In this document: positions 40,059 through 54,690 of the stretch, piece after piece
Numbering within the stretch: the first letter of the stretch is position 1
Layout: each line of letters opens with the position of its first letter
From: an uncultured virus (IMG/VR IMGVR_UViG_3300031841_003153)
Taxonomy: Duplodnaviria; Heunggongvirae; Uroviricota; Caudoviricetes
DNA length: 55,112 nt
IMG/VR virus record: IMGVR_UViG_3300031841_003153
Direction: 5' to 3' (one strand)
Position numbers and translations under genes: made by a program
The notes under the pieces: generated by a model
What the model saw: only the letters and a program-made list of their open reading frames with translations
The model's database searches: none
What the model was told of the DNA's origin: nothing

Positions 40059-40303
40059 TCAACCTCTTCGTCAACACTGTCCATTTCTGCCTCTGTTGAC
40101 GAATCTTGTACTGGTTCGCTTGTCTCATTATGAGACGACCATTGGATATCTTGTGAGCTTTTATCATTTAACTTTTGTATTTCCTCTACGGTTAGAGGTC
40201 TATCAGGAACATCTAAATCATTTGCAACAGATTTATCCAACGAGGCTGTGCTTTTTGTGCTTAATTTAAGCTGCGGGCTTGCACCCAACTTTTTCTTTGC
40301 CAT
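40055..40303 (-). CDS. Hypothetical protein
   Basis: 82 aa, AAGGTGA RBS, ATGA overlap with sigma gene. Confidence 0.6.
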   Translation of the reverse strand: MAKKKLGASPQLKLSTKSTASLDKSVANDLDVPDRPLTVEEIQKLNDKSSQDIQWSSHNETSEPVQDSSTEAEMDSVDEEVD

Positions 40304-40636
40304 TTTATCACCTTTGTTTGTATGTGAGCCAATGCGTCACATCTTGTTATAGTGTTTTTCCGTAGGTTTTACACATTTTAAAGGTATTTTGAAGTAAAGT
40401 GGGGCAGAAAGAAGCATTCACAGGGGCAGTCTTTGGGGTTTGGGTGGGACATATATTTTTATTTGGGGCCAATTTTGTCTAAACCACCCAGCCGATTTGT
40501 CAATACTAAAAGCAAAAAAAACCTGAAAATAAAATTACCCCCTTTTTTCAGAATTATGCTGTAGACCTATTGACAATCTTGCCGATCTATGTATAATAAG
40601 GGCATACAAGAGACAACAACAACTAAGGAAAACATT

Positions 40637-40768
40637 ATGACAAGTTACGAAAAAGCAATTGCAGAAGTTAAAGAAATGGTCAAAAACGGATCGACTTTGA
40701 GAGAAGCTATCAAAGACGTAGCTTCAGAGTTCGGATTCTTTGAAGCAGAATTATGGGAAGAATTTTAG
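40637..40768 (+). CDS. Small early protein (43 aa)
   Basis: Promoter, CA-rich leader, AAGGAA, then MTSYEKAIAEVKEMVKNG...WEEF. Confidence 0.65.
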   Translation: MTSYEKAIAEVKEMVKNGSTLREAIKDVASEFGFFEAELWEEF

Positions 40769-40856
40769 GATTTTACCCTATTGGGACTTGACAAAACAAC
40801 CGATATCTGTATAATAGAAGCATACAAGAGACAACAACAACTAAACGAGAAAAACA

Positions 40857-41087
40857 ATGACTTTCAAAATGAACGACGAAGTAGTAAACAACATCCTTGC
40901 AATCACTGAGGAACACGGTTTTGAAACCGTTTCCGATTGGGCTGAGTTTGAGGGAGGGCTACACTTCGTTGTGGAAACTATCCAGAACGAACTGTGGTTA
41001 GACTACGATCTGTACTATGATGATCTGGAAGATGCTTGCGATTGGTTGTTTGACCGCGAACAACGACTAGAGCGATTGGAAAACTAA
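40857..41087 (+). CDS. Acidic small early protein
   Basis: Own promoter; D/E- and aromatic-rich 76 aa. Confidence 0.7.
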   Translation: MTFKMNDEVVNNILAITEEHGFETVSDWAEFEGGLHFVVETIQNELWLDYDLYYDDLEDACDWLFDREQRLERLEN

Positions 41088-41190
41088 TCAGAAAAACTTT
41101 CTGATTTTAGGCTAAAGGCTCTTGACAAACTAGCCGATAACTGTATAATAGAAGCATACAACAAACAACAACTAACTAAGGTAAAACATT

Positions 41191-41397
41191 ATGACTAACT
41201 TTCAAAACTTCATCAACAGCGTCGATTGCACCGCCAACATCACCGTAAGCGGCAACGCTTGTAAGGTTGGTTGGACTCACACCACCACCGCCAACAACGT
41301 TTCCATTAACGGAGATCGTGTTATGATGTACGATCACAAGATTAAACGATATATCCACACTCAAATAAAAGATATAAAATCTTTCAAATTGGCCTAA
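41191..41397 (+). CDS. Small early protein (possible SH3/WYL-like beta fold)
   Basis: Own promoter, AAGGT RBS; MYDHKIKRYIHTQIKDIKSF. Confidence 0.65.
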   Translation: MTNFQNFINSVDCTANITVSGNACKVGWTHTTTANNVSINGDRVMMYDHKIKRYIHTQIKDIKSFKLA

Positions 41398-41474
41398 TCA
41401 GCTATTGACAATGCGGACGATAACTGTATAATAGAAGCATACAAGAGACAACAACTACTAACTAAGGTAATAAG

Positions 41475-41630
41475 ATGAAAAAGTTTTTAACAGCTAAAGA
41501 GACTGAGGGAATGACCCTCGACCAATTCGTTGCCGCAATGCGGGAAGGTAAGGTAGAAGTGAAGCCGGAAGGTTCACACGAACCTACAGCCGATCAGGTT
41601 ACTATGGGTGGGCGATTCGGTTGCGAGTGA
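41475..41630 (+). CDS. Small early protein (51 aa)
   Basis: Promoter, AAGGT; MKKFLTAK...EPTADQVTMGGRFGCE. Confidence 0.65.
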   Translation: MKKFLTAKETEGMTLDQFVAAMREGKVEVKPEGSHEPTADQVTMGGRFGCE

Positions 41631-41685
41631 TTCGCCACTGTCAATAGCAAATCCAGAAAATAACTAGGTTTTCTGGAAATCGACG

Positions 41686-41762
41686 TAAGTCCTTACGTAT
41701 CAACGACTTAGGACAAAAATCGGGGCGGCGATTGACGTAACTCCTTATACAGCAACGACTTA
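41686..41762. repeat. 77-bp double-palindrome element, copy 1
   Basis: TAAGTCCTT-N7-AACGACTTA, 27 bp, TAACTCCTT-N7-AACGACTTA. Confidence 0.9.
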
Positions 41763-41992
41763 CAACGATTCTTAAAAACTTTCGGAATTGTGCAGATTTG
41801 GTATTGACATCTACATATCGCAATATCACGATATATCATGACATAAAACCATATGTCCTACCCCATATAATAGGGGTATATGGATAACAGCCAGTGCCAG
41901 TGGTCAGCCAATAATGCAAAAAACTTTGATAAAATTCTAGAAAATAGGCGTACAGGGGTTGACAAATCCTGAAAAGTATGTATAATAGGGGC

Positions 41993-42148
41993 ATGAAAGA
42001 AAGAAAAGAATACGATCACAAATGTTGCTTCTGCGGTAAAAACATGAAATCCGCTGAGAAGCCTCACCCATCATTGAAGGTTTCACACGTCGAGTGTGCT
42101 TTCGAGGCTTGCAAAAAAGTTCGGGAAAAAGTTCAGAATAACTGCTGA
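41993..42148 (+). CDS. Small Cys/His protein, probably leaderless (51 aa)
   Basis: ATG 6 nt after TATAAT; CCFCG...HVEC. Confidence 0.55.
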   Translation: MKERKEYDHKCCFCGKNMKSAEKPHPSLKVSHVECAFEACKKVREKVQNNC

Positions 42149-42221
42149 ACCCTCTTGACAAATGACGATATATAGTATATAATAAGAGCATAACAACAAC
42201 ACTACTACAAAAGGTAAAAAC

Positions 42222-42419
42222 ATGTTTAACGTAGAATTTGAAAACCAAAACGGCGACTGGGCTTTCCGCACTTTCAACACTCAGCAAGCCGCTGACGTGT
42301 TCGCCAAGAACGCCGAGATGCAGGGTTGCAAGATCCTGTTTTGCGGCAATCCTCGCGACGTGTTGGGAGAGCCTACATGGAGCAGCGTGACAATGGATGG
42401 TCGCTTCTCCTGCGATTGA
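42222..42419 (+). CDS. Small early protein
   Basis: Promoter, AAGGT; ends EPTWSSVTMDGRFSCD. Confidence 0.7.
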   Translation: MFNVEFENQNGDWAFRTFNTQQAADVFAKNAEMQGCKILFCGNPRDVLGEPTWSSVTMDGRFSCD

Positions 42420-42426
42420 TTGACAC

Positions 42427-42505
42427 AATCGGATATCCTACCGATTCCAAATAAATTAGGTTCTAGGAATTTAACCGCAAGTTATACTAGGTAATCAAAA
42501 CTGCG
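42427..42505 (+). ncRNA. Tandem double-pseudoknot RNA, copy A
   Basis: Covarying helices with copy at 45383-45462. Confidence 0.65.
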
Positions 42506-42550
42506 ACACTAACACACTAACACACTAACACACTAACACACTACACACTA
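42506..42550 (+). repeat. ACACTAAC tandem repeat (4 perfect plus 2 partial) in a 5' leader
   Basis: Direct reading. Confidence 0.85.
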
Positions 42551-42561
42551 GAGAAAACATT

Positions 42562-42735
42562 ATGAAACAAGATCGTGAACTAGCTGAAATGGCAAAGGCC
42601 GAGCAAGAGGAACTAGACTCGCAAGAGCTTGCCTATCATTGCACCACCCTATCACAAGAGGAAGTAGTGGAGCTATACGTTTCACTCGCTCGCGAGACTG
42701 GCAAGCTACGCCAAGAGATAGACTACAAGTTCTAG
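42562..42735 (+). CDS. Small helical protein (57 aa), possible paralog of 46208-46399
   Basis: MKQDRELAEMAKAEQEELDSQELAYHC... versus ...VKAEQQFLDEQMYRRNLEHC... Confidence 0.6.
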   Translation: MKQDRELAEMAKAEQEELDSQELAYHCTTLSQEEVVELYVSLARETGKLRQEIDYKF

Positions 42736-42745
42736 TCAATAGCCA

Positions 42746-42822
42746 TAAGTCCTTACCACACAACGACTTAGGTGAGGTAGGGCCGCCCCGATTGACGTAA
42801 GTGCTTACACAGCAACGACTTA
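42746..42822. repeat. 77-bp element, copy 2
   Basis: 25+27+25 bp. Confidence 0.9.
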
Positions 42823-42966
42823 CGACGATTAGAATTATTTCTTAAAAACTTTCGGAATTAGGGTGCAGAGGGGTTGACAAATCTGCCGATATATGTATAA
42901 TAGGGGAGTCAAGCAGAGAGGAAAGCACCTAGCCGACTGGCAGGCCGCTCTCGGAAGTCTCGACAC

Positions 42967-42980
42967 TGATCTTTGACAAT
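42967..42980 (+). promoter_or_regulatory. boxA-like antitermination site TGATCTTTGACAAT
   Basis: Also at 47403 and 47639; resembles rrn boxA; precedes RNA cluster. Confidence 0.5.
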
Positions 42981-43124
42981 TTGGTTGTTTTTTTCATTTT
43001 CACTGGCGAAAGCCCTTGACAAATGACGATAACTATGGTATAATGATAAAATGTTAAACGCGAGTCGGGCAAGATGTCCCGATCTGTAAGATCAGACAAA
43101 TTCACAAAATCGCGAACAATACAA

Positions 43125-43179
43125 GAGGCAAACCAACAGGTCGGCTTATGCTTAACGGCAGGTTGGATAGTAAGTCCTC
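43125..43179 (+). ncRNA. Structured RNA (GAGGCAAACC family), copy A
   Basis: Near-identical copy at 47959-48013 with compensatory stem change. Confidence 0.65.
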
Positions 43180-43256
43180 ACCAATACAATACGGGGCTTC
43201 TCAAAGGCGAGAGCCGGACGCTACTGCGTTTCACAGAGTTTATTTCTAACCCTTTA

Positions 43257-43329
43257 GCGGGGGTTGACCTAACAGGCGTGAGACGTTGCCGGTGTAAGGC
43301 AGGTTCGATTCCTGCAAGCCTCTGCCCAC
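43257..43329 (+). ncRNA. tRNA-like RNA (T-arm, long acceptor-like stem, CCA)
   Basis: GCAGG-TTCGATT-CCTGC; GCGGGGGTT/AGCCTCTGC; ends CCA; no canonical D or anticodon arm. Confidence 0.5.
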
Positions 43330-43335
43330 AATACA

Positions 43336-43590
43336 ATGTTTAAGTGTGTTATCACTGAACACTTTGGTCCCTTTAACGGGTTTGGCGGTTACGGTTCGAT
43401 CACTCAGGTCGGAATGGATCGCTCACCCGCTAAGGCAGTCGCCAAGGCTAAGGCTTGGAACATCACTGACGGTAAAGCTATCAGGCGATACGTCAATGAG
43501 AGTCCTGCCGGTGCTGGCGGTGGCGTTCCAATTATGACTGATTTCACCTTGCTAAAAAACGGCAAGGTAGTCAAGCAAACTTGGGATTGA
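43336..43590 (+). CDS. Small early protein
   Basis: 84-aa ORF after RNA cluster. Confidence 0.6.
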   Translation: MFKCVITEHFGPFNGFGGYGSITQVGMDRSPAKAVAKAKAWNITDGKAIRRYVNESPAGAGGGVPIMTDFTLLKNGKVVKQTWD

Positions 43591-43620
43591 CCTAGTGTGA
43601 AGTCGTCGGCCTTTCGAGGT

Positions 43621-43661
43621 TGTGGAGTTTGATAAGCTCTGTCGTAATCACTCAATTATCA
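43621..43661 (+). ncRNA. 3'-UTR pseudoknot element, copy A
   Basis: Covaries with 48263-48303. Confidence 0.55.
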
Positions 43662-43690
43662 CAAAATTTTCATTTTCCTCTTGACAACCG

Positions 43691-43767
43691 TAAGTCCTTA
43701 TATACCAACGACTTAGAGCGGACCGGGCAGCCCAGATCGACGTAAGTCCTTATATACCAACGACTTA
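43691..43767. repeat. 77-bp element, copy 3
   Basis: Two identical boxes TAAGTCCTTATATACCAACGACTTA, 27 bp apart. Confidence 0.9.
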
Positions 43768-43969
43768 CATCAAACACCGGCGAACACCAGCACCCCAGCA
43801 AATACCATGCCAAAGCCTGTCTTTTCTAAAGTAAAAAGACTATGTTTCACAGCCAGCGGTCAGTAAACTTTGATAAAATTATATAAAAATAGTGGCGTAG
43901 GGGTTGACAAACAGTCGATATTATGTATAATAGAGGACATACAACAAACAACTCTTTAAGGTAAAAATT

Positions 43970-44104
43970 ATGACTCACAAAATCATCACCCTCTGCATCG
44001 ACGCTCTTATTCAACTTGCTTCCACCAAGGGCAATAGTGGGCAATTCAACCGCGACGTAGACGACGCAATAAAATCTTTGCGAAATGTCAAGAAATACCT
44101 TTAG
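43970..44104 (+). CDS. Small early protein (44 aa)
   Basis: Promoter, AAGGT; MTHKIITLCID... Confidence 0.6.
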   Translation: MTHKIITLCIDALIQLASTKGNSGQFNRDVDDAIKSLRNVKKYL

Positions 44105-44170
44105 AACCTCTTGACAAATGACGATAAGTATGGTATAATAAGAGCATAACAAGTTAAGGATTTTAAGATT

Positions 44171-44674
44171 ATGAAAAAAGCATTTGTATTTGATTTTGAT
44201 GACACTCTCGCAACCACCGATTGCAAGGTTATCGTTCGTCGTCGAAACTCCATTGGTGGAAGGTTTACTGTTCGTAAATTGACTCCTGCTGAGTTCAATA
44301 CTGACGTTCTCGCAGACGGTGAAGAATATGACTTTTCCGAGTTCCGTTCTGCTGAGTTCATCCGTTCGGCTAACCCTACTTTTCTTATGGCTCTTGCCCA
44401 AGAGGTTCACAATGAAGGGCATAGCGTTTATGTTCTTACTGCTCGTGCTGATAATGTGGCCGATGCAATCACTAGCTGGTTGCTTGGTTTTGGTGTTAAA
44501 CCTGTTCGCGTTTTCGGTGTTGGTTCCGATGATAAAAAGGTAGACATTCCAGCAGAAAAGCAAAAGGTTTTGAGAACCTTAAATCAGCTTTTCGATGTTG
44601 TCTACTTTTACGATGATGACCAACACAATGTTGACCTTGCTGGTCAAGTTGGTGTCAAGACCTATTTGGTATAA
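44171..44674 (+). CDS. HAD-superfamily phosphatase
   Basis: Motif I FDFDDTL, motif II VLTAR, conserved Lys, motif IV FYDDDQHN. Confidence 0.85.
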   Translation: MKKAFVFDFDDTLATTDCKVIVRRRNSIGGRFTVRKLTPAEFNTDVLADGEEYDFSEFRSAEFIRSANPTFLMALAQEVHNEGHSVYVLTARADNVADAITSWLLGFGVKPVRVFGVGSDDKKVDIPAEKQKVLRTLNQLFDVVYFYDDDQHNVDLAGQVGVKTYLV

Positions 44675-44687
44675 TTGAGGTAAAATT

Positions 44688-44825
44688 ATGAAAGTTTATG
44701 TTGTTTTATATGATGATTACGAAATGCTTGAGGTTGTGGGCGTCTTTATCAATGAGGGTGAGGCCGAGAAGGTAGCAGCAACAAGCAACAAATACTACAT
44801 ACGAGAATCCACTTTGATGAAGTAA
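44688..44825 (+). CDS. Small protein (45 aa)
   Basis: GAGG RBS; MKVYVVLYDDYE...; its TAA stop is the first 3 nt of element copy 4. Confidence 0.6.
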   Translation: MKVYVVLYDDYEMLEVVGVFINEGEAEKVAATSNKYYIRESTLMK

Positions 44826-44899
44826 GTCCTTTGGTGGCAACGACTTAGGGCAAAAATTGTTGCGGCGATTGACGTAACTCCTTATACACCAACGACTTA
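44823..44899. repeat. 77-bp element, copy 4
   Basis: 25+27+25 bp. Confidence 0.9.
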
Positions 44900-44985
44900 C
44901 GACACAAACAAAAAACTTTGATAAAATTATGAGAAAATGGTGGTGTAGGGGTTGACAAATCGACGATATAGTGTATAATAGAAGT

Positions 44986-45108
44986 ATGAAATTTAAGAAA
45001 TCACGACAAATGATCGCCTTTTGGAACATCTTCGCCTATGGCGGAAATCGCCCCACTAATGTCACCCCCGCACGTTGGGCAGCAATTTGCAAATTCTTTG
45101 AGAATAAT
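44986..45108 (+). CDS. Small leaderless ORF (40 aa)
   Basis: ATG 6 nt after TATAAT. Confidence 0.5.
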
Positions 45109-45209
45109 CTCTAAGATTGACCTAACGTGTCACTACCATAGACGATAATACTAATATAAGAGATCAACGGTTGATCTCAAATTCATTCCTCTAACCAAAG
45201 GTATTTGTT

Positions 45210-45374
45210 ATGACTTATAAGACAAACAACTACTACTGGGACTCAGTTGCTAACCGCAAGCCGGTTGCTCCCGAAACCCCCGCACAACGTGCGGATCGCA
45301 AGCAGCGTGAAGCTGATGCGTATGCTGCTTATGTAGCAAAGTACGGGCATAGCCCATTCAAACGCACCAAGTAG
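45210..45374 (+). CDS. Small protein (54 aa)
   Basis: AAGGT RBS; MTYKTNNYYWDS... Confidence 0.6.
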   Translation: MTYKTNNYYWDSVANRKPVAPETPAQRADRKQREADAYAAYVAKYGHSPFKRTK

Positions 45375-45382
45375 TGCGGCTT

Positions 45383-45462
45383 ACTCGGATCTCCTGCCGA
45401 ATATAAATAAATCAGGTCTTGGAAGTTAAACGGTAAGTTGTACCAAGCAATCAAAACTACCG
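45383..45462 (+). ncRNA. Tandem double-pseudoknot RNA, copy B
   Basis: Covaries with 42427-42505. Confidence 0.65.
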
Positions 45463-45503
45463 CCCAACAACATTCTTTACAACACTTACCAAAGGTAAAC
45501 ATT

Positions 45504-45734
45504 ATGACTACTAAACAATTTGACGTAACCTACATCAATCCTTTCAGCGGTCGCGAAGTGACCGAGGTTGAGGTTTCCGCCAACTACCTATCACAAAACG
45601 ATAGCGGCGAAACCGTTTTTCGTATGAACGACTTTCATCCCGCTTGCGAAGTGGTGCGAGTCGTTGAGGTTTCACAGGCTCGGCTTGACGCTAAGGCTGC
45701 ATACTTCGCTCGTTGGGGTACTGCAAATGAGTGA
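45504..45734 (+). CDS. Small protein (76 aa)
   Basis: AAGGT RBS before MTTKQFDV. Confidence 0.65.
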   Translation: MTTKQFDVTYINPFSGREVTEVEVSANYLSQNDSGETVFRMNDFHPACEVVRVVEVSQARLDAKAAYFARWGTANE

Positions 45735-45890
45735 GTTTTTCTCTACTGCGTTTGACTTGTTTATGATCTGCATCTCCGCATTCGCGTTTATGTGCGGGGT
45801 AATGTCAGTTGTTTATATGCTTTTACATTGGAGCTAATTATAGCGGGCGTTCTGTCAATAGACATTTTCCAAATTTTCTCAGAATAGTCA

Positions 45891-45967
45891 TAAGTCCTTG
45901 TGCAGCAACGACTTAGGGCGTCGGCGGCTGCCCGGATCGACGTAACTCCTTACACACCAACAACTTA
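45891..45967. repeat. 77-bp element, copy 5
   Basis: 25+27+25 bp. Confidence 0.9.
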
Positions 45968-46207
45968 CAACTATTTTGTCTTTTCTAAACTTTTCCGATA
46001 GAAATTGACCAGACTTGTCATACCGATGTGCGATAATATAAGTAAGGAGATAACGAAATGGAAATTGTAATTTGTAGTGCGGCAGCTTTGGTGATGGTTC
46101 AAGTTTTTATGATAATCTTTGAAGAAAGTAAGAGATAGGGCTTGACAAATGCCGATAAGTATGGTATAATAATAGTATAACAAAAACAACAACAAAAGGT
46201 AAAAACT

Positions 46208-46399
46208 ATGAAACTTGAAAACGACCCACAATTCCAAGCCGAAGTTAAAGCCGAACAACAGTTCCTCGACGAACAAATGTACCGGCGTAACTTGGAGCAT
46301 TGCACTAAAGAACAACTCCTCGAACTGTGTATCGGCCTGCTCCACAGCGAAAAAGAGAAGCGGGAAGAATTGGATAAAATTCACGGAATTATCCGATAG
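46208..46399 (+). CDS. Small helical protein
   Basis: Promoter and AAGGT RBS. Confidence 0.7.
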   Translation: MKLENDPQFQAEVKAEQQFLDEQMYRRNLEHCTKEQLLELCIGLLHSEKEKREELDKIHGIIR

Positions 46400-46471
46400 A
46401 CCCCTTGACAAATAGCGATAAGTATGCTATAATAGGGGCATACAACACACAACACTTTTAAAGGTTTTACT

Positions 46472-46876
46472 ATGAAATTTGAAAACACCATCGGCGGAAA
46501 ACTGGTTGCCGAACTTCGCCAAGCTACCCGCGAATTGATCGTGGTTCCTAACTCTTGCCTACCTGCCGAAATGCACGATAACGTGCGTGGCGGTCGTACT
46601 CTTGCACGTTTGGAAGAACTGTGTGAGAAGCGTGACGGTATCACCGCTCACACAAAACTCAAGGCTCTAAAGGCTCGCAACGTCGAGCGTTTGGCTGCTC
46701 AAGTAGAAGCGAAAAGCGTTTTTGCTGCTCATGGTGATTTCGTCGATCTTACCGGCGAATTGGATTACTCGGATAACGAGTGCGATGATTTGCAGTTGAC
46801 CAAAAATATGCAAGCCTTGGTTGGCGGCATGGTCAACGGTGGATTGATCGACGCTGACGATCTTTTGGAGGATTGA
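46472..46876 (+). CDS. Hypothetical early protein
   Basis: Promoter and AAGG RBS, 134 aa. Confidence 0.75.
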   Translation: MKFENTIGGKLVAELRQATRELIVVPNSCLPAEMHDNVRGGRTLARLEELCEKRDGITAHTKLKALKARNVERLAAQVEAKSVFAAHGDFVDLTGELDYSDNECDDLQLTKNMQALVGGMVNGGLIDADDLLED

Positions 46877-46880
46877 TTTT

Positions 46881-47150
46881 ATGAAAATTCAACTAGCCGC
46901 ACTTGCAAGACTTCGCACAAACTCCACCGCGATGTTTGAATTTCCCGCTGAATGGGGCGAATTTGATTTTACGGATACCAACGAGCAGATTCGTGCTTGT
47001 GAATTGATTATGTCTGAAACTGGTGCTATGTGGATTCCTGTAGCATACGCAGAAGCACACAACGAAACCCAGATAGAGCAGTTCCGTGATTCAGTTTTAA
47101 AGCAGATGGGTGATATACCTGCCTGTGACGTAGAACAAAAGTGGGAATAA
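46881..47150 (+). CDS. Hypothetical protein
   Basis: GGAGG RBS, 89 aa. Confidence 0.7.
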   Translation: MKIQLAALARLRTNSTAMFEFPAEWGEFDFTDTNEQIRACELIMSETGAMWIPVAYAEAHNETQIEQFRDSVLKQMGDIPACDVEQKWE

Positions 47151-47213
47151 TGCTTGTCAACCCCAAAACCTTCTATTTTCTCAATTTTTTTATAGCTTTT
47201 TTTCTTGCTGTCG

Positions 47214-47290
47214 TAAGTCGTTTACTGGCAACGACTTAGGTCGGCGGCGGCTGCGGCGGGCGACGTAAGTCCTTTCATACCAACAACTTA
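47214..47290. repeat. 77-bp element, copy 6
   Basis: First box has perfect arms TAAGTCGTT/AACGACTTA. Confidence 0.9.
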
Positions 47291-47846
47291 CGACGATCCC
47301 GAAAAACTTTTGAAATAATCTCATAAAAAGGTGGCCTACCCCTTGACAAATGGACGATATTGTGTATAATGGGGGTATGAGAACGGCAAGCAAGCCCCTC
47401 ACTGATCTTTGACAATTTGGTAGTTCAACATTCTCCACGGGGAGGCGGTAAGCTGTGCCGCCAAAGTAATGGAAGTAACAGCCTCAGAAAATTTCCCCGA
47501 TTTTTACAATTTTGGTCATGATGCCCCTTGACAAATGCCGATAATTATGGTATAATGGGGACATGACAAACGAGATCGCGGGAACTCGAAAACACCCCGC
47601 CAATGCAGTAGAACATTGTAAACAACTCTACGGGACATTGATCTTTTACAATTTGGTTGTTTTTGGAATCGCCCTGATTCGAGGCGGTGCAGGCGAAAGC
47701 CGTAAGACTAACAATATCGGACGCGAACCGGATAGCCACAAGTGAATCCGGCAGCATCAAAATCCACCAATACAGGGCTTGACCCGTAAACCTCGCCCAA
47801 GTCGCGAGTATAGCTGGCGAGCTATTCCAAGATACGCACCATACAA

Positions 47847-47950
47847 TGACTGGTAGTTGGGACAGGATGCGAGGGTTCGACTCCCTCTGGAAACATTGGC
47901 GGCATAGGCTTGATCAGCCACCTGCGAGGGTTCGACTCCCTCACCAGTCG
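47847..47950 (+). ncRNA. tRNA-like RNA with two identical T-arms
   Basis: TGACTGGT/ACCAGTCG closing stem; TGCGAGGGTTCGACTCCCTC twice. Confidence 0.55.
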
Positions 47951-47958
47951 CAATACAA

Positions 47959-48013
47959 GAGGCAAACCAGCCGGTCGGCTTATGCTTAACGGCGGGCTGG
48001 GTAGTAAGTCCTC
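47959..48013 (+). ncRNA. Structured RNA (GAGGCAAACC family), copy B
   Basis: See copy A. Confidence 0.65.
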
Positions 48014-48025
48014 ACACAATACACT

Positions 48026-48235
48026 ATGCCTATGACTTGTGTCGTAGCGGTTCCTTGCGTCAAGTGCAAGAATACCCAAGAAGTCCCAGTTGACTTTGAG
48101 GGTTTTCAGGCTTTGCAATCAGGTGAGTATATCCAAGAAGCTCTACCAGAGCTTGATGCGGATATGCGAGAGCTTTTCATCTCCGGCATTTGTCCTAAAT
48201 GCTGGGATGAGATGTTCCCATCTGACGAGGATTAG
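48026..48235 (+). CDS. Small Zn-finger-like protein
   Basis: CVKC...RELFISGICPKCWD. Confidence 0.7.
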   Translation: MPMTCVVAVPCVKCKNTQEVPVDFEGFQALQSGEYIQEALPELDADMRELFISGICPKCWDEMFPSDED

Positions 48236-48262
48236 AACCCGCTACCGTTTCCGGTTCGCCGG

Positions 48263-48303
48263 TGTGGAGTTTGATTAGCTCTGTCGGAATTACTCAATAA
48301 TCA
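48263..48303 (+). ncRNA. 3'-UTR pseudoknot element, copy B
   Basis: See copy A. Confidence 0.55.
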
Positions 48304-48317
48304 AAACAATTCAATAA

Positions 48318-48494
48318 GCCCCTATAGTTTATTTGGTTAAAACACTATCTCTAGCCAAACTGGTTTGATCGCCAGTGATTCTACAATCTAAGTGGTGGAC
48401 GCACTTACTGGGTTGCGTTGGGTTGATCTCCAACGACACGAATCAGGTTAGGTTCAAGATAGAGAAAATGGTTCGATTCCATTATGGGGAAGCA
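48318..48494 (+). ncRNA. tRNA scaffold with about 100-nt structured insert in the anticodon loop
   Basis: D-arm GTTT-ATTTGGTTA-AAAC, anticodon stem CTATC/GATAG, T-arm AATGG-TTCGATT-CCATT, CCCC/GGGG acceptor; insert 48351-48451. Confidence 0.6.
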
Positions 48495-48606
48495 CATTCT
48501 GATAACGGGGCGTCATAGCCGAGAGGCAAGACCACTCACGCCCACAACCCCCAAACGGGGGAGAGAGAAGTAGGGTTGGCACACTATTTGCAGTAGGTAA
48601 TCGACG

Positions 48607-48683
48607 TAAGTCCTTACGTGGTAAGGGTTTAGGTGCAATCGGGCAGCCCCGCGTGTCGTAAGTCCTTTGGTGACAACAACTTA
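48607..48683. repeat. 77-bp element, copy 7
   Basis: Right-arm variant AAGGGTTTA. Confidence 0.88.
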
Positions 48684-48758
48684 CAACAAATCCTAAAAAC
48701 TTTCAAAAAAAGCTATTGACACCCACTTGACTTTGACGATGTATATAGTATAATGATA

Positions 48759-48823
48759 GAGTAAGCAGGGCAGCAAGATGGAACGGCCTCACAAGTTGGA
48801 ACCCACTTGCCCTGTCTTACCTC
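48759..48823 (+). ncRNA. Promoter-proximal sRNA, conserved stem with variable core, copy A
   Basis: GAGTAAG(A)CAG...CTGTCTTACCTC shared with 50525-50600. Confidence 0.5.
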
Positions 48824-48942
48824 AACTAAACTGATCGAACATTGCTAGAACCGCCAGCAAAAAAACAAAATTAAATTAAAGATTGGGGGTTGACAATGAC
48901 GATAACTATAGTATAATTAAGACATAACACGAAGGAAAGATT

Positions 48943-49113
48943 ATGAAAGAGAAATGGAGTTTGGTACTTTTGATTGTATCTTTTACGCTTGGTTGTTTGC
49001 TTCTTGGTTGCAGACAACCAGTGAGAAACTATAAGATCGTAACCGGATCGCCTGACGTATGGGCGGCAGAACCTAAACAAAAAGTAGAATTCACAGTAGA
49101 GTGGAAACAATGA
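48943..49113 (+). CDS. Small lipoprotein (56 aa)
   Basis: MKEKWSLVLLIVSFTLGCLLLGC lipobox; AAGGA RBS; ATGA overlap with next gene. Confidence 0.6.
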   Translation: MKEKWSLVLLIVSFTLGCLLLGCRQPVRNYKIVTGSPDVWAAEPKQKVEFTVEWKQ

Positions 49114-49313
49114 AGATTAAAAAGAATCAACAGTACGGCATGGATCGGATCGAAACCGATCAAGGTACAGTGTTCTTCCGCAACAAAAACGGTTTCTTTG
49201 ATGCGGCAGGAGAACCGGCCCAACTGTCTAGCATGGCACAGTTAAGAAGATTTGAGGCAAACGAAAATGCAGCACAATGGAGAAAAGTTAAAAAAAATAC
49301 TAAAGACACTTGA
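49110..49313 (+). CDS. Small protein
   Basis: ATGA coupling; MKIKKNQQYG... Confidence 0.6.
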   Translation: MKIKKNQQYGMDRIETDQGTVFFRNKNGFFDAAGEPAQLSSMAQLRRFEANENAAQWRKVKKNTKDT

Positions 49314-49359
49314 CAAAGCCGATAACTACTGTATAATAAGAACATAACACAAAAGGAAA

Positions 49360-49590
49360 ATGACGATGAGTGAGATTGCAGACGTAAAGGTTAAGATACT
49401 GTTCTTTGAGCCATGCACCGCGACGAACTTTGAGCCAGAGTATCAGTTGCGACTCATGGATGGAGAGGAGGGGTTCGACAGTGAGATCGTCCTTGCCACT
49501 GGGAATACTGCTGGTGCAGCAGCCAGAAAGGGGAAAAGAGCATTGAAGCGACTGTTAAAAGAACTTGAAAAGGAGATGGAAGATGAGTAA
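49360..49590 (+). CDS. Small protein
   Basis: Promoter and AAGGA RBS. Confidence 0.65.
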   Translation: MTMSEIADVKVKILFFEPCTATNFEPEYQLRLMDGEEGFDSEIVLATGNTAGAAARKGKRALKRLLKELEKEMEDE

Positions 49591-49756
49591 GGAACTGAAA
49601 GCAGAAAACGAGCGACTGCGTGAGGAAAACGAGCGACTTCGTGAAATAGTCAGTGAGGTGGAGAACCTTCACTACGGGACTGATCTTTTTACCTCGTGTG
49701 CAGCCGGAGAAGCTGACCGGCTCATTGAGCTAATCGAAAGTGAGATGCCTTTTTGA
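49583..49756 (+). CDS. Small coiled-coil protein
   Basis: LKAENERLREENERLRE. Confidence 0.6.
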   Translation: MSKELKAENERLREENERLREIVSEVENLHYGTDLFTSCAAGEADRLIELIESEMPF

Positions 49757-49921
49757 TTTTGTTCAAGATACCCCTTGACAACTGCCGATAATACTGTATA
49801 ATGGAACATATGAGAATGACAAGTTGATAACGAGAGCGGGTTCGCGAAAAGCGAATAGAGAAGGCTAAAACCCGTAAGTCGTCACGATAATTTTCCAACA
49901 CAACACTTTGAAAGGTTTACT

Positions 49922-50095
49922 ATGACTGATTTAGAAAACGACCCACTTTATATACTGCTCAATATTGATCGGCACGGTTCAGACGACGAACCACACTACG
50001 AAGATGACGATTATTCGGAGGGTTTCCAAAACGGCCCCTTCGATATGCACCTTGACGATTACGTTTCCGAAGATGGGGATTATTGCAATGTATGA
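49922..50095 (+). CDS. Very acidic small protein (57 aa)
   Basis: AAGGT RBS; MTDLENDP...DDEPHYEDDDY. Confidence 0.6.
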   Translation: MTDLENDPLYILLNIDRHGSDDEPHYEDDDYSEGFQNGPFDMHLDDYVSEDGDYCNV

Positions 50096-50270
50096 TGAAG
50101 ATTATGATAGCCTTGACTATTGGATGGACTGCGACGAAGAAGATGATCGCAGGGTAGAAGCGGAGCTATTGCGTCAGGCTCAAGATTTTGACGCAGATTT
50201 TTATGGTGATCCAGAACCTACCGAAGATGATTACCAAGACCTTTTAGATGAGTTAGAATATCCCCAATGA
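50088..50270 (+). CDS. Very acidic small protein (60 aa)
   Basis: MYDEDYDSLDYWMDCDEEDD...; overlaps previous stop. Confidence 0.6.
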   Translation: MYDEDYDSLDYWMDCDEEDDRRVEAELLRQAQDFDADFYGDPEPTEDDYQDLLDELEYPQ

Positions 50271-50373
50271 GTGCTGGCGAATTTGTGTGGGGCTTCATCG
50301 GTGCTGGTGCTATTTGGTACATCATTGGTGTAGCTCTGTACGGTTTTTGGTGTGGCCTGACTGGAAAATGACG

Positions 50374-50450
50374 TAAGTCCTTTGATACCAACAACTTAGG
50401 ACGGGCGGGGCTGCGGCCCGCGACGTAAACCCTTTGATACCAACGACTTA
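50374..50450. repeat. 77-bp element, copy 8
   Basis: 25+27+25 bp; left-arm variant TAAACCCTT in second box. Confidence 0.9.
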
Positions 50451-50524
50451 CAACAATTCTAAAAAAACTTTGAGATTTCCTATTGACAACCCCTTGACTT
50501 TGACGATACATATAGTATAATGAT

Positions 50525-50600
50525 AGAGTAAGACAGCCCAATTAAAGCCTCATAAATCAAAAGGGTTCAGGCGGTATGGCTTCCCGTCCTGTCTTACCTC
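50525..50600 (+). ncRNA. Promoter-proximal sRNA, copy B
   Basis: See copy A. Confidence 0.5.
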
Positions 50601-50695
50601 AACTAAACTGATCGGACAGCATAGACACAGCCAGCGAAAAAGAAAAAAAAGATTTTACCCCTTGACATTCGCAAAACATATGGTATAATAGAAGT

Positions 50696-50881
50696 ATGAA
50701 AGACACAATGAAAGACTGGATCGTAAAGATCAACAAAGACACAAGCTGGTCAGTGACCAACAAAGTAACAAAAGAACACCGAAAGATGTGGAGTAAACGA
50801 GATGTCGAAAATTTCCTCGACTGGCAAGAGAATTGCCATGCCCAAGCTAAGGGCAGCAACGATGAAAGATCGTCGCACTAA
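50696..50881 (+). CDS. Small leaderless ORF
   Basis: ATG 6 nt after TATAAT. Confidence 0.55.
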   Translation: MKDTMKDWIVKINKDTSWSVTNKVTKEHRKMWSKRDVENFLDWQENCHAQAKGSNDERSSH

Positions 50882-50949
50882 GCGTAAACGTACACGCCAA
50901 GCACAACGTAGTGCGTGGCAGAAAGATTGTAACTAGAAAGGTTAAAAAG

Positions 50950-51099
50950 ATGATTAAGTTAATCAAAGACAAAGAGACGAAAACCAAGATTCGCTACACT
51001 GTGACCGGTGACGTATCCGGCAGCATCTATGTGGACAAGGATTCAGACCTTGCAAAAGAAACTGAAATTGTTTTGGAAATTGCTCAAGTTACCGCTTGA
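50950..51099 (+). CDS. Small protein
   Basis: AAGGT RBS before MIKLIKDK. Confidence 0.6.
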   Translation: MIKLIKDKETKTKIRYTVTGDVSGSIYVDKDSDLAKETEIVLEIAQVTA

Positions 51100-51159
51100 C
51101 ATTGACGATAAATATAGTATAATGGTAGAGTACAGTTAACAACACTTTTGGAGAGACTT

Positions 51160-51396
51160 ATGAAAGTCAAAACTATCGTAGAGTTAAAATTCGATCACGC
51201 TTACACTAGCTATCGAGCATTGACGTTCCACGATTCCGATCAGAACGAAGTCTGCATCAACATGACAGACGACCAGTATCTCGCACTAGCAGAGACACTA
51301 AACGGCAAAGCGAAGCGTATTCGCGAAGAACGTGCCGACGAAGCTGCGGAAGCAGCAAGGGTGGCAGAACTCGCAAAGGAGAATGAGGATGAGTAA
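51160..51396 (+). CDS. Small protein
   Basis: Promoter and GGAG RBS. Confidence 0.65.
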   Translation: MKVKTIVELKFDHAYTSYRALTFHDSDQNEVCINMTDDQYLALAETLNGKAKRIREERADEAAEAARVAELAKENEDE

Positions 51397-51565
51397 CGAA
51401 GCTCAAAAACCGATTGTCGCAGTCGGAACAAAACTTGCGGCTGGTACTGTTGTCGCCATCAATGGCAACTCTGTTTCGATTGACACTGCGGAAGGTGTTA
51501 AGCAATTTAGTTTTTCTCAAGTAGAGGGTTTCATCAATGATGAACGATTTGTATCTCAAGCGTAA
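51389..51565 (+). CDS. Small beta-rich protein
   Basis: AAGGAG RBS, overlapping upstream stop. Confidence 0.6.
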   Translation: MSNEAQKPIVAVGTKLAAGTVVAINGNSVSIDTAEGVKQFSFSQVEGFINDERFVSQA

Positions 51566-51740
51566 TGAACGCAAAGTCAAGTTCTTGTACCCCAAGAACG
51601 GTAACCGCAACATCCTTCGGGAAGTTGAGGGTGTGAAGGTTCGTTCCTTCACCGGTCCAAATGGTCGCGGTATTACCGTGGCTGAAAAGAACGGCTTACA
51701 CAAGTCGTTTTCAATCGCTAAGTGCGTAGCTTCACTTTAA
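51537..51740 (+). CDS. Small basic protein, possible WYL/SH3-like
   Basis: VKFLYPKNG...REVEG...HKSFSIAK. Confidence 0.6.
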   Translation: MMNDLYLKRNERKVKFLYPKNGNRNILREVEGVKVRSFTGPNGRGITVAEKNGLHKSFSIAKCVASL

Positions 51741-51856
51741 ACTAAGCTAACCTTTCGTGTTGTTGCGAAGATGCGGGACGGGAAACGTAAGCGTTTTGGG
51801 AGTCATGACCCATGTAAGTCGTGTGCTGCACAAGTCCCGCTTCTTTGTTTTTATAT

Positions 51857-51992
51857 CTAGGGGTGCTTGCATGATTCCTATGGCAATGTGGAAACCCTAC
51901 TAAGGGGGCTGAATAAGCCATAACACAATAAGGTGCAAGAGCCGGTCCGCCGGTAGCGTGGTTAATCGTGGGTTCGACTCCCACACTCCTAG
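51857..51992 (+). ncRNA. tRNA-like RNA (8-bp acceptor-like stem plus T-arm) with large internal domain
   Basis: CTAGGGGT/ACTCCTAG stacked on GTGGG-TTCGACT-CCCAC; inner stems CTTGCA/TGCAAG and TATGGC/GCCATA. Confidence 0.55.
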
Positions 51993-52004
51993 CTTTTATC
52001 GACG

Positions 52005-52081
52005 TAAACCCTTGGTATCAAACGACTTAGGGCGGGCCGGGCAGCGGCGGGCGACGTAAGTCCTTTAGTGACAACGACTTA
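52005..52081. repeat. 77-bp element, copy 9
   Basis: 25+27+25 bp. Confidence 0.9.
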
Positions 52082-52198
52082 CGACGATTAAAAAAACTTC
52101 TTAAATTTCTTGGTTTTTCTATAGACCACCCCTTGACAATGCCGATAATTACTGTATAATGAAAGGGTAATCAGTTAACAACTTTGAAAGGTAAAAAG

Positions 52199-52366
52199 AT
52201 GGAAGATTTTGATTTCTGCGTAATTTGTGACTGCTTCATTTCACACGTTCCCGATCCCGACGCCCTCACGCATATTTGCGACGATTGTTCCGATGATGGT
52301 TGGGCAGAATTTGACGGACAGCCCGACGAGATGCAAGAATGGCATGATTTTGATCCAGATTGTTAG
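52199..52366 (+). CDS. Acidic Zn-ribbon-like small protein
   Basis: CVICD...ICDDC; ends DGQPDEMQEWHDFDPDC. Confidence 0.65.
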   Translation: MEDFDFCVICDCFISHVPDPDALTHICDDCSDDGWAEFDGQPDEMQEWHDFDPDC

Positions 52367-52447
52367 AAAAAAAGTCAAGTTTACCCCTTGACAATGACGA
52401 TCTATATAGTATAATAATAGAGTAATCAACCACAAAAGAGAGAAAAA

Positions 52448-53176
52448 ATGCACGTTACACTCAACATGGCATCCGGCAATCGCAAAGTCGGTGCAATCCC
52501 AGTATCAACCACAGAAGCAGAATCCTGTCCTTCATCATGTCCTCTCAAGTCGCCTCACGGTGCAGGTATCGCCAAAGACGGTGATTGCTACGCAGCGTTC
52601 GGCCCGTTGGGTATGCACTGGCGTAAGATCGGTAAAGACGGTCGCGGTATCATGTGGTCGCTATTTTGCAAGGCAATCAAAAAACTTCCCAAGGGTCAAC
52701 TATGGCGACACAATCAAGCCGGTGATTTGCCCAAGTCTCACACCGATTCCGCTGATCGTGACATTGTTGACGCTGAAAAGTGTTTCGAGTTGTCCAATGC
52801 AAGCCGTGGCAAACGTGGTTGGACGTATACGCATTATGATATGTCCAGCCCGTTAAATCGTGCCGTTGTTGAAGAAATGAACGACGTTGACGGTTTGACC
52901 GTTAATCTATCCGCTGATTCACTCAGTGAAGCCGATCAATATTATGATCTTGGCATAGCACCCGTGTGCGTTACGCTTCCCAAGGACGCACCGCATCGCG
53001 GTAACAAAACACCAAAGGGTTTGCCCGTTGTTGTTTGTCCTGCTCAGACTCAGGACGAAATGAGTTGCCAACAATGCAAATTGTGCCAAGTTCGTGACCG
53101 TAAGTCTATCGTTGGGTTTCTTGCCCACGGAACGGCAAGTAAAAGACTCAGCCAAAAATTGGAGGGGTTTGTATAA
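52448..53176 (+). CDS. Cys-rich phage protein (possible Fe-S/metal enzyme)
   Basis: CPSSCP...CYA, WRHNQAGD, WTYTH, CPAQ...CQQCKLC...FLAHG. Confidence 0.65.
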   Translation: MHVTLNMASGNRKVGAIPVSTTEAESCPSSCPLKSPHGAGIAKDGDCYAAFGPLGMHWRKIGKDGRGIMWSLFCKAIKKLPKGQLWRHNQAGDLPKSHTDSADRDIVDAEKCFELSNASRGKRGWTYTHYDMSSPLNRAVVEEMNDVDGLTVNLSADSLSEADQYYDLGIAPVCVTLPKDAPHRGNKTPKGLPVVVCPAQTQDEMSCQQCKLCQVRDRKSIVGFLAHGTASKRLSQKLEGFV

Positions 53177-53241
53177 TGGAGTGGGTTCTAGTGCTGCTCG
53201 TTTGTATATTGTTATGTTTGTTTTTAGTCGAAAGGTAAGCT

Positions 53242-53508
53242 ATGAAAAGTTTAGTATTGTTTAGTTATCGTCAACCCGTCGAAGGTTACAAGTTTCGTTG
53301 GGGAGTTTTAGAATCTCGTCGGGATACCGACAAGCACCCCGTATGGAACGACACCTACCGTTCCGATGATCCAGAGTTTAAGCGTTCGCGTGACCTTGAC
53401 ACGGTTCTAACCCGTGACGGTGTGCGGGCGTTCTACCGTCAACGGCAACACTGGAAGCTGAAAATCCCGCTACTGGGTTCGCTTGTCAAGCCTATTTTGG
53501 CAAAATAG
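53242..53508 (+). CDS. Small protein
   Basis: AAGGT RBS, 88 aa. Confidence 0.65.
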   Translation: MKSLVLFSYRQPVEGYKFRWGVLESRRDTDKHPVWNDTYRSDDPEFKRSRDLDTVLTRDGVRAFYRQRQHWKLKIPLLGSLVKPILAK

Positions 53509-53540
53509 CTTAAAATAGCTAAAATTTTTATTCGTCGCCG

Positions 53541-53617
53541 TAAGTCCTTTACTGGTAAGGGTTTACGTGCGGCGGGGCAGCACCGCTGAACGTAAGTCCT
53601 TATCTCACAACAACTTA
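53541..53617. repeat. 77-bp element, copy 10
   Basis: 25+27+25 bp. Confidence 0.88.
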
Positions 53618-53694
53618 CGTCAATCTAAAAAAATATCCTAAAAAGATTCATGATACCCCCTTGACAATGACGATATATACTGTATAATAGGAGT

Positions 53695-53907
53695 ATGAAC
53701 ATGAAAGAACAACGAGCTATTGCAGACAAATTCACAGCAGATACAGGTATCTACACAAGCTATTGTGAGTCTTGTGAGATGTGGATCGTTCACTGCCCGG
53801 AGTGTAACCATAACTGGTGCGGTGGTGGTTGCGGTTGTGGGTATAATATCTTACTCAATAACAAACAGGCACAACTAGACGAAATGTTGGAGGCTATCAG
53901 TGAATAG
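53695..53907 (+). CDS. Small Cys-rich protein, leaderless
   Basis: ATG 6 nt after TATAAT; CESC...CPEC...CGGGCGC. Confidence 0.65.
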   Translation: MNMKEQRAIADKFTADTGIYTSYCESCEMWIVHCPECNHNWCGGGCGCGYNILLNNKQAQLDEMLEAISE

Positions 53908-54123
53908 TATAAATTATGAAACCGTGATTGCCCCAAATGGCAAATGGTACGATGTTCAGGTCAATATTGGAATGAGTTGGCGGGATTGTCCATTCTTCAA
54001 GATTGTGGGCCATACTGATTGGCTGATTGGTGATCTTGTTGCTGCTAAAAAATGGCTAGAAATCCATAAAAGTTAAAGTTGACCCCTTGACTTTGACGAT
54101 ATATACTGTATAATGGAAGTGTT

Positions 54124-54193
54124 GCGGGTATCGTACAGGTAATGCCGAAAGGTACAACAGAGGTGAAAGTCCTCGCCACCGCGTAATGCCCGC
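54124..54193 (+). ncRNA. Structured 5' leader/sRNA
   Basis: GCGGGTAT/ATGCCCGC closing stem, GCC-GAAA-GGT and GAGG-TGAAAGT-CCTC hairpins just after promoter. Confidence 0.45.
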
Positions 54194-54216
54194 TTTCACA
54201 ACACGAAAGGAATAAA

Positions 54217-54690
54217 ATGAAAAAACCAAGAGTTAAGCACAGCAAAGATATTGCACAGCATATCGACCCAGCACAAAAGGTTCGCGTGTATCGTAACCTT
54301 CACAAAGATTGTTTTAGCGTCAAGCAAAACGGTTTGGTTCGTTGTCACGCCGACAATGTTACCCTAGAAAATGTTAAGTTCATCGTGTCCAAGGCGGGGC
54401 AAAGGAGAGTCAGGGATGAAAAGAAAAAGAACGTTCACGCGTATGTTGAGGGTTTTGTTTGTGATACTCGTAAGGCCGACAACTACGTTGACGGTGAGTG
54501 GTCTGATGAAGAAGTCGAAAACGGTTTCACCAACTGGATCTGTGCCTACTACAATCCATACGAGTGCGACGGATTTATGAACACCGCAACCGAGCAGGTT
54601 TACGAAACCGCCAAGATCGCAGACCTATCAAATCTTGACAAGGTTATTTATGTTTTTGCACCATTGACTTCTAGCGAATGTATGGTATGA
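54217..54690 (+). CDS. Phage hypothetical protein
   Basis: AAGGA RBS; VRVYRNLH...GQRRVRDEKKKNVHAYV. Confidence 0.75.
   Translation: MKKPRVKHSKDIAQHIDPAQKVRVYRNLHKDCFSVKQNGLVRCHADNVTLENVKFIVSKAGQRRVRDEKKKNVHAYVEGFVCDTRKADNYVDGEWSDEEVENGFTNWICAYYNPYECDGFMNTATEQVYETAKIADLSNLDKVIYVFAPLTSSECMV

Follow-up and report, generated by a model that had tools for sequence, protein, structure and literature searches.

The DNA considered here, hereafter the window, is a stretch of 55,112 nucleotides from an uncultured tailed virus (IMG/VR record IMGVR_UViG_3300031841_003153), and the subject of this analysis is an element of 77 bp, composed of two 25-bp boxes around a GC-rich spacer, that occurs ten times in its right-hand part. 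A blastn comparison of positions 41001-49000 with cultured phages returned 0 matches, and even the nearest large terminases of cultured phages have only about 25% identity to that of the window, which derives from a novel tailed phage that is not T4-like. Seawater, marine, and aquatic-virome runs of at least six studies contain near-identical DNA. The segment from 40.3 to 55.1 kb, in which promoters precede small open reading frames (ORFs) and non-coding stretches, has the character of an early-type region, and all 10 elements begin 0-101 nt past the end of a gene or RNA gene, ahead of the next promoter. We know of essentially no account of early-gene control in uncultivated marine jumbo phages. 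The box pairs described below, which this marine giant phage keeps in constant helical phase ahead of its strongest early promoters, look like undescribed docking sites for a DNA-bending regulator rather than recombination sites.

Ten box pairs confined to the early region

When both strands of the window were searched for the box pattern TAAGTCCTT-N7-AACGACTTA with at most three mismatches, 20 sites (37 strand-matches) were recovered, every one of them either at one of ten element starts or 52 bp beyond it, while dinucleotide-preserving shuffles, which served as the null, gave an expectation of 0.05 and a maximum of 2. The skeleton TAA-N4-TT-N7-AA-N4-TTA likewise occurs 20 times in the 55,112 bp, always within 41686-53617 and 0 times in the late part (1-41685, 41.6 kb). 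An earlier note on this DNA had described ten paired copies at these positions and none in the late half, and both scans bear this out. The same holds for its account of the internal geometry: the 27-bp spacer and the 52-bp box-to-box period are found in 10/10 pairs, and GCNGC lies on the dyad (spacer nt 12-16) in 8 of the 10 spacers, those without it belonging to the elements at 41686 and 44823. The claim that lengths never vary stands for the phage of the window but not for its relatives, in which the period ranges from 47 to 56 bp and is mostly 53 bp.

Inverted arms about a 7-bp core, in a 9-7-9 arrangement, are present in 20/20 boxes. The arm variant TAAACCCTT is located on left arms (50426 and 52005) and AAGGGTTTA on right arms (48607 and 53541), just as the note had it, but its further view that symmetry is what is conserved does not extend to a true palindrome, since position 7 of the box is C in 19/20 boxes and position 19 is C in 18/20. 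All boxes of the window share one orientation, the two boxes of each element being in direct orientation. The boxes are directional quasi-palindromes, the asymmetry of which tracks the direction of transcription.

Half-sites and helical phasing to promoters

Whether the arms are conserved as sequence or as pairing partners was examined in 28 elements drawn from whole contigs (the window and three relatives), a sample without bias towards consensus arms, at four variable arm positions, giving 112 cells. Under every pairing scheme considered (within a box, between inner arms, or between outer arms, on either strand), 25-53 of the 112 cells are mismatched; specifically, L1:R2 pairing leaves 33-45 mismatches and R1:L2 pairing 25-28. 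The half-site variants GTCC, GTCG, GTTG, ACCC, CCCC, and CTCC combine freely, and the fully Watson-Crick combination TAAACCCTT...AAGGGTTTA is absent among the six commonest 4:22 pair types of 80 upstream partner boxes. Because there is no covariation between them, the arms act as double-stranded half-sites and not as hairpin stems; selection is on arm sequence, not on arm pairing.

The spacer carries a short palindrome of its own, placed on the exact dyad of the element: 6.73 of 13.4 symmetric pairs are complementary, as compared to 4.50 +/- 0.15 in shuffles and to approximately 4 at shifted centers. Complementarity reaches 68-73% only at 2-4 nt from the center, falling to 30-48% at 5-10 nt, and a palindrome with arms of 3-4 bp is too short for a stable terminator stem. 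The window contains 15 terminator-like sites (15.3 in shuffles), 0 of them at any element, and a T-run following the central palindrome was not seen. An intrinsic (Rho-independent) terminator, combining a GC stem of at least five pairs with a T-run, was rejected as an identity for the element on this basis.

The relation of the elements to promoters was assessed in eight contigs containing 79 elements, with a strict promoter defined as TTGAC-N-N16-18-TAnAnT within 140 bp of an element. Such a promoter is present at 44 of the 79, always on the transcribed side, whichever strand that is. Within the window, 8/10 elements are followed by a near-consensus sigma70 promoter, and the modules flank small ORFan genes. 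The box proximal to the promoter is asymmetric towards it, with the form GaCG-TAAGTCCTT-N6C-AACGACTTA-CGaC (C19 in 88% of 35 boxes), and the distal box is more symmetric. Distances from the box end to the -35 hexamer are not continuous, but peak at 19-20, 30-31, 41-42, 51-52, 63, 83, and 94 bp. For 139 distinct linkers the Rayleigh statistic R is 0.59 at 10.5-10.75 bp, with a null maximum of 0.26 in 2000 random sets, and when a single linker per sequence cluster is kept (n=90), R is 0.573 at 10.5 bp, a value reached by 0/5000 random sets. Linkers of one distance class are unrelated in sequence. Phasing to the promoter with a 10.5-bp period therefore marks a protein site that depends on the face of the helix: it is what a bound protein that bends DNA or makes contacts produces, and neither RNA elements nor terminators nor recombination sites would be expected to show it.

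Two features of a phased upstream operator or enhancer, independent half-sites and helical distance, were thus observed, and they support the conclusion that the element is an undescribed kind of protein site on double-stranded DNA, of the paired operator/enhancer type. The earlier note had suggested an undescribed nucleoprotein site of several possible kinds, among which the paired operator or enhancer has gained from the independent half-sites and the promoter phase-lock, while the recombination site that shuffles cassettes is not supported, with differing cores and no tyrosine or serine recombinase found in 3/3 near-complete relatives. A search of the literature, which included the arm 9-mers, did not find a description of the motif; the 9-mers gave only primers and unrelated papers.

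With slightly better than even confidence, we read the elements as paired, helically phased upstream binding sites from which a putative dimeric factor would bend the DNA and modulate the host-type early promoter next to them. Each 25-bp box would be a double-stranded site for a dimeric, probably DNA-bending protein, with a predicted half-site of the form G-a-C-G-TAA-(G/A/C)(T/C)C(C/G)-TT, and two boxes about five helical turns apart around the short GC palindrome would compose a module of approximately 77 bp. Ahead of an early promoter of the consensus host type (sigma70), the module would always keep to one face of the helix, such that the center of the proximal box would fall near -68, -79, -90, -100, or -111 if the -35 hexamer is taken to start at -35. 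We infer that a protein binds and bends the DNA here, and that, once bound, it would modulate the promoter in either direction, by activation (architectural, or through contact with RNA polymerase) or by shut-off. Since the module starts right after the preceding gene, it may also shield the promoter from read-through of the upstream unit, and by analogy with the PeSL cassettes of T4-like phages the elements may double as boundaries between transcription units.

Several observations weigh against this interpretation. No strict promoter lies within 140 bp of 35 of the 79 elements, some of which are instead followed by a motif of the form TTGACC...GATAAT. No box accompanies the four early promoters that come first (40570-41405) or most of the internal ones, and boxes are therefore not needed for promoter function as such. 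The two distance classes of the window, 43 and 51-52 bp, are 8-9 bp apart and not 10.5 bp, and the phasing statistic retains phylogenetic dependence even after clustering because related sequences share ancestry. Every element comes after a gene end, a position that would suit a boundary or a terminator just as well. Finally, no binding protein was found. DNA-binding Pfam domains are present in 0 of 36 early ORFs of the window, in agreement with the earlier statement that no cognate protein is evident there, and no HU/IHF gene (Bac_DNA_binding) was detected in five related records, three of which are 95-100% complete. Of 14 control genomes, 14 gave a match in the Phage_integrase search, 12 in the Resolvase search, and 9 in the Bac_DNA_binding search.

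Neighboring features and occurrence elsewhere

The coordinates of the ten elements and of the promoter array are collected in Table 1.

Table 1. Box-pair elements and early promoters of the window (strict promoters as defined in the text; distances are measured from the end of box 2).
Feature	Coordinates	Strand	Boxes and context	Promoter
Element 1	41686..41762	+	TAAGTCCTT-acgtatc-AACGACTTA, 27-bp GC-rich spacer, TAACTCCTT-atacagc-AACGACTTA; 56 nt past stop of ORF 41475..41630	no strict promoter within 140 bp
Element 2	42746..42822	+	two boxes, 52-bp period; 11 nt past stop at 42735	42874-42901, 51 bp
Element 3	43691..43767	+	both cores ATATACC; sigma54-like minus-strand motif between element and promoter	43904-43931, 136 bp
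Element 4	44823..44899	+	first TAA is the stop codon of ORF 44688..44825	44952-44979, 52 bp
Element 5	45891..45967	+	followed by second promoter-like type	no strict promoter; TTGACC...GATAAT at ~46007-46039
Element 6	47214..47290	+	box 1 a perfect palindrome, TAAGTCGTT...AACGACTTA	47343-47370, 52 bp
Element 7	48607..48683	+	right arm of box 1 is AAGGGTTTA	48727-48754, 43 bp
Element 8	50374..50450	+	both cores TGATACC; left arm of box 2 is TAAACCCTT; 2 nt past TGA 50369-50371	50494-50521, 43 bp
Element 9	52005..52081	+	box 1 has TAAACCCTT and inverted core GGTATCA; after tRNA-like 3' end ~51960-51992	52133-52160, 51 bp
Element 10	53541..53617	+	33 nt past stop at 53508	53661-53688, 43 bp
Promoter array	40570..54114	+	26 promoters of sigma70 type (TTGACA/T-N16-17-TATAAT, perfect or 11-of-12); CGATA in many of the spacers; every promoter rightward	8 have an element directly upstream

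Three further motifs accompany the promoters. The pentamer CGATA, often preceded by GC or GA, is conserved in the -35/-10 spacer of early promoters (40570-54114 and relatives), which suggests a candidate recognition element in addition to the two hexamers. The second promoter-like motif has a long spacer and reads TTGACC-(t/a)a(a/g)ac(g/t)tgtca...GATAAT; it replaces the consensus promoter after some elements and is present at 45118-45150 and 46007-46039 as well as in loci L043, L151, L153, and L154. The third, TTGGCA-N5-TTTGC, lies at 43797-43816 on the minus strand, opposite to early transcription and directed into the box pair, and it is also present between box and promoter in L190, L194, L215, L216, and L254, all modules with a longer box-promoter distance; it resembles what we take to be the sigma54 -24/-12 consensus.

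Non-coding stretches driven by promoters at 43074-43340, 47370-48020, 48330-48600, and 51860-51995 contain in total five tRNA-like T-arm motifs (GGTTCGAnTCC), and the copy at approximately 51960-51992 ends in the manner of a tRNA 3' end right ahead of element 9. ARAGORN identified no tRNA in the window, and a search of the window against Rfam gave nothing at the gathering threshold, while the looser cut-off of E<=1 added no more than 18 nt (47870-47887) matching the T-arm of tmRNA; these stretches may encode novel tRNA-like small RNAs. The non-coding early transcripts also contain a repeated motif, cactgatctttgacaatttggt(t/a)gtt (42958-42985, 47403-47425, and 47636-47660), and two of their 65-nt stretches, 43117-43181 and 47951-48015, share 92% identity. 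In the leader of ORF 42562..42735, at 42505-42550, four to five copies of ACACTAAC form a short tandem repeat. One public RNA run, an oligo-dT library searched as contigs, contained 0.05 of sampled words and a 5.4-kb contig of a relative, data that are without transcript ends or expression. In the late part, a single ORF of 3770 aa (332-11644, minus strand) has tape-measure PHROG matches at its N-terminus, which would imply an exceptionally long tail.

Adjoining the early region, at 38731-40058 on the minus strand, are genes for a 172-aa sigma70 region-2 protein and a 270-aa protein, a position that is kept in the related contigs G002, G012, and G013. As universal partners of the boxes both were rejected, being present in 3/5 relatives and not detected in G011 and G004; blastp does extend the sigma-like family to G004 and G005. 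They are likely the phage's own middle or late transcription factors. Three small early protein families are common to 5-6 of 8 contigs, none of them an evident DNA binder. A separate small and very basic early peptide with a conserved RPKRxRTR-like motif (family D) is present in G002, G003, G011, G012, and G013, and a 44-aa ORF of the window (50802-50936) looks homologous to it by eye. The factor may come from the host, as an architectural protein, or from the phage, as a protein that is injected or made early.

A motif scan beyond the window, one of the checks proposed in the earlier note, has extended the box to other phages and to bacteria. The exact box is present in at least 155 IMG/VR loci, most of which have a second box across a GC-rich spacer followed by a promoter of the TTGACA...CGATA...TATAAT type. 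In three near-complete relatives (131, 233, and 230 kb), the boxes cluster in one region of 7-20 kb each; in the 230-kb genome, which is complete, 24 of 25 skeleton matches fall within 35,987-54,620 (19 kb). The window and four partial contigs have terminase, portal-region, and sigma-like genes in common and therefore belong to one deep phage lineage, and the boxes are conserved between relatives that have no other nucleotide similarity by blastn at E<=1e-8.

Among GTDB genomes, the box is present in at least 123 loci, as compared to approximately 35 chance matches expected in 596 Gb by our own arithmetic, and part of these matches is noise; the reversed control pattern has 0 matches in the bacterial genomes with genuine copies. 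Repeat families containing the box were found in a Latescibacterota genome (G006, about 28 copies) and a Planctomycetia genome (about 30 sites), and a Pedosphaera genome has box pairs 76 bp apart. In seven Planctomycetia loci the arrangement box, approximately 65 bp, box, 32-33 bp, TTGACA-N17-TA..AT reproduces the architecture of the phage modules. Several single bacterial boxes directly adjoin tRNA genes, some of them right after the tRNA 3' end, and two of these tRNA-adjacent copies (L186 and L203) also adjoin integrase genes. Pfam searches of the ORFs around 15, and then 20, bacterial copies did not find a common neighboring family, and among 201 Planctomycetota genomes a match with at most one mismatch is present in 18 (reversed control, 7), with several copies in only two. 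A phylum-wide host regulon was ruled out by this sporadic occurrence and by the lack of a common neighbor family; as far as their distribution and surroundings indicate, the bacterial copies look like mobile or phage-derived cassettes and not like a conserved host regulon. The G006 repeat is longer than 150 bp and contains one box, right after which comes a poly-C tract that varies in length (13-25 C); in the two loci examined, L156 and L179, it lies approximately 300 bp upstream of genes for LRR/LDL-receptor-repeat proteins and looks like a phase-variable promoter region.

Taken together, the box of 25 bp, the pair period of 52-53 bp, and the 10.5-bp phasing to consensus promoters sharply define a cis-element by which the early, host-takeover region can be recognized throughout a large phage lineage. 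It is usable as a genomic marker for such regions and their ORFan cargo, as a handle for fishing out the binding factor, and as a candidate modular promoter or insulator part, and the scattered bacterial copies hint at phage-host traffic of regulatory cassettes.

Competing explanations and known systems

Possible, though on balance rather unlikely, is an account in which each element is a composite boundary cassette of the PeSL type: the element, and especially its GC center, would stop or attenuate upstream transcription, the promoter would restart it, and homologous recombination between the modules would shuffle the small early genes. This account is compatible with the paired operator, and it is favored by the placement of 10/10 window elements after a gene or RNA-gene end and before the next promoter, by the box-less state of the very first early promoters, and by the lack of a separate terminator-like hairpin beside the elements. 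Further support may come from the order of cassettes among relatives, which the earlier note had proposed to check. G002, with 70-80% nucleotide identity to the window, keeps the same order from 50.4 to 55.1 kb, but it has the homologues of 43166-43345 and 48097-48315 in other cassettes, with breaks beside element/promoter modules. Such relocated blocks are what shuffling at the sites would leave; equally, they appear to fit homologous exchange at repeated modules, as proposed for PeSLs, which are described as composite terminator/promoter motifs tied to ORFan indels (PMC4122927). The account is opposed, however, by the shortness of the central palindrome, its lack of a T-run, and the absence of terminator-like sites from all elements, by arm pairing that is not conserved, and by the phasing, for which termination alone gives no reason; moreover, the metagenome joints found at boxes have sides of only 20-42 nt. 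Contig joints at boxes or promoters in public metagenomes were likewise rejected as evidence of excision, as sides of this length equal the repeat size, and they were treated as mis-joins or as other phages. A bolder and less probable proposal, offered as speculation, is that the box is bound with high affinity by an architectural protein that is broadly conserved in bacteria, or by RNA polymerase itself; the marine jumbo phage lineage would use pairs as a wrapped "enhancer-insulator" that blocks read-through while loading polymerase on the next early promoter, and the same unit would move as a mobile promoter cassette into the chromosomes of several bacterial phyla.

The remaining accounts are improbable to differing degrees. 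Were the element a structured RNA or single-stranded DNA, it would fold into three hairpins or into a single long attC-like one whose 7x7 loop stays unpaired, and it might affect the stability or processing of RNA or, once folded, be a site of recombination or priming. Minimum free energy folds of 89-nt elements do often yield a long hairpin, the center is palindromic, some arm combinations give G-T wobble on one strand, and several bacterial copies follow tRNA 3' ends. The folding z-scores (-0.2 to -5.4) are nonetheless moderate, as expected of any palindrome, the wobble-compatible strand alternates between boxes, Rfam has no match to the elements at the gathering threshold or at E<=1, and both the lack of covariation, with 25-50% of variable arm positions mismatched in every scheme, and the phasing with a DNA promoter element are at odds with RNA, so that we regard this account as improbable. 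Very improbable is a selfish or neutral repeat (MITE- or REP-like) with no role for the phage: the box-containing families of Latescibacterota, Planctomycetia, and Pedosphaera, and the lack of a common neighboring gene family in bacteria, are in its favor, yet the phage boxes are confined to the early region even in the 230-kb genome, are fixed in orientation and phase relative to promoters, and are kept across relatives that are otherwise dissimilar. Least probable of all, in our estimation, are lox/dif/attC-like sites at which site-specific recombination would lead to the excision, inversion, or exchange of promoter-gene cassettes. The 9(13)-7-9(13) architecture resembles that generally ascribed to tyrosine-recombinase core sites, cassette order differs between relatives, and two bacterial copies neighbor integrase and tRNA genes. 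Set against this, the cores are identical in only 2/10 window pairs and differ between elements, the window boxes share one orientation with no reliable inversion or excision joints, outer/inner arm pairing of the attC type is not conserved, helical phasing is left unexplained, and the integrase gene that the earlier note had proposed to look for was not found (PF00589/PF00239 matches in 0/5 related records, three of them 95-100% complete).

Among known systems, REP/BIME repeats resemble the elements in being extragenic, in lying at the 3' ends of transcription units, and in forming pairs with fixed linkers; the boxes differ from them in not being genome-wide, in lacking stem covariation, in their direct orientation, and in their coupling to promoters. 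Identity with REP/BIME was ruled out by the confinement to the early region and the absence of covariation, and genome-wide hairpins were not found. Phased upstream activator or architectural sites are represented by CRP at class I promoters, by IHF upstream of lambda pL and Mu Pe, and by Fis at rrnB P1. As we understand these systems, they too have dyad symmetry and precede a sigma70 promoter by 60-150 bp, with an effect that depends on the face of the helix. In the case of IHF, there is also a likeness in sequence: AA-N4-TTA is present in 20/20 right arms of the window, preceded by C in 17/20, and the resulting CAA-N4-TTA resembles the 3' part of what we take to be the IHF consensus, WATCAANNNNTTR. 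The WAT part, however, is not conserved in the boxes (of 35 proximal boxes, 11% have T as the third base), and the symmetric spacing of the box is 2 bp shorter than that of a symmetric IHF site, by our own geometry on the structure as we presume it to be. The resemblance to IHF is thus a lead and not a test.

Closer in setting are the PeSLs of T4-like phages, which share with the elements the repetition of composite modules between small early ORFan genes, a near-consensus sigma70 promoter (in the RB49/phi1 pair a near-perfect TTGACA-N17-TATAAT) with a dyad element ahead of it, and a link to modular gene shuffling (PMC2839356, PMC4122927). The PeSL stem is a simple G(n)-loop-C(n), in contrast to the two sequence-conserved 25-bp boxes and short GC palindrome found here, where furthermore there is no covariation of the arms, the -35 hexamer is in helical phase with the module, and the phage is not T4-like. 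The sites of protein p4 of phage phi29 are paired pseudo-inverted repeats of 27 bp (CTTTTT-N15-AAAATG), each binding a DNA-bending dimer next to early promoters and thereby switching transcription (PMC3100819). Their sequence is unrelated, phi29 has two such regions as compared to the 10-25 modules of the phages described here, and a p4-like gene was not identified, none having been specifically searched for; in their pairing, similar size, and position beside promoters, however, the p4 sites are the closest solved analogue of the element in architecture (PMC3100819).

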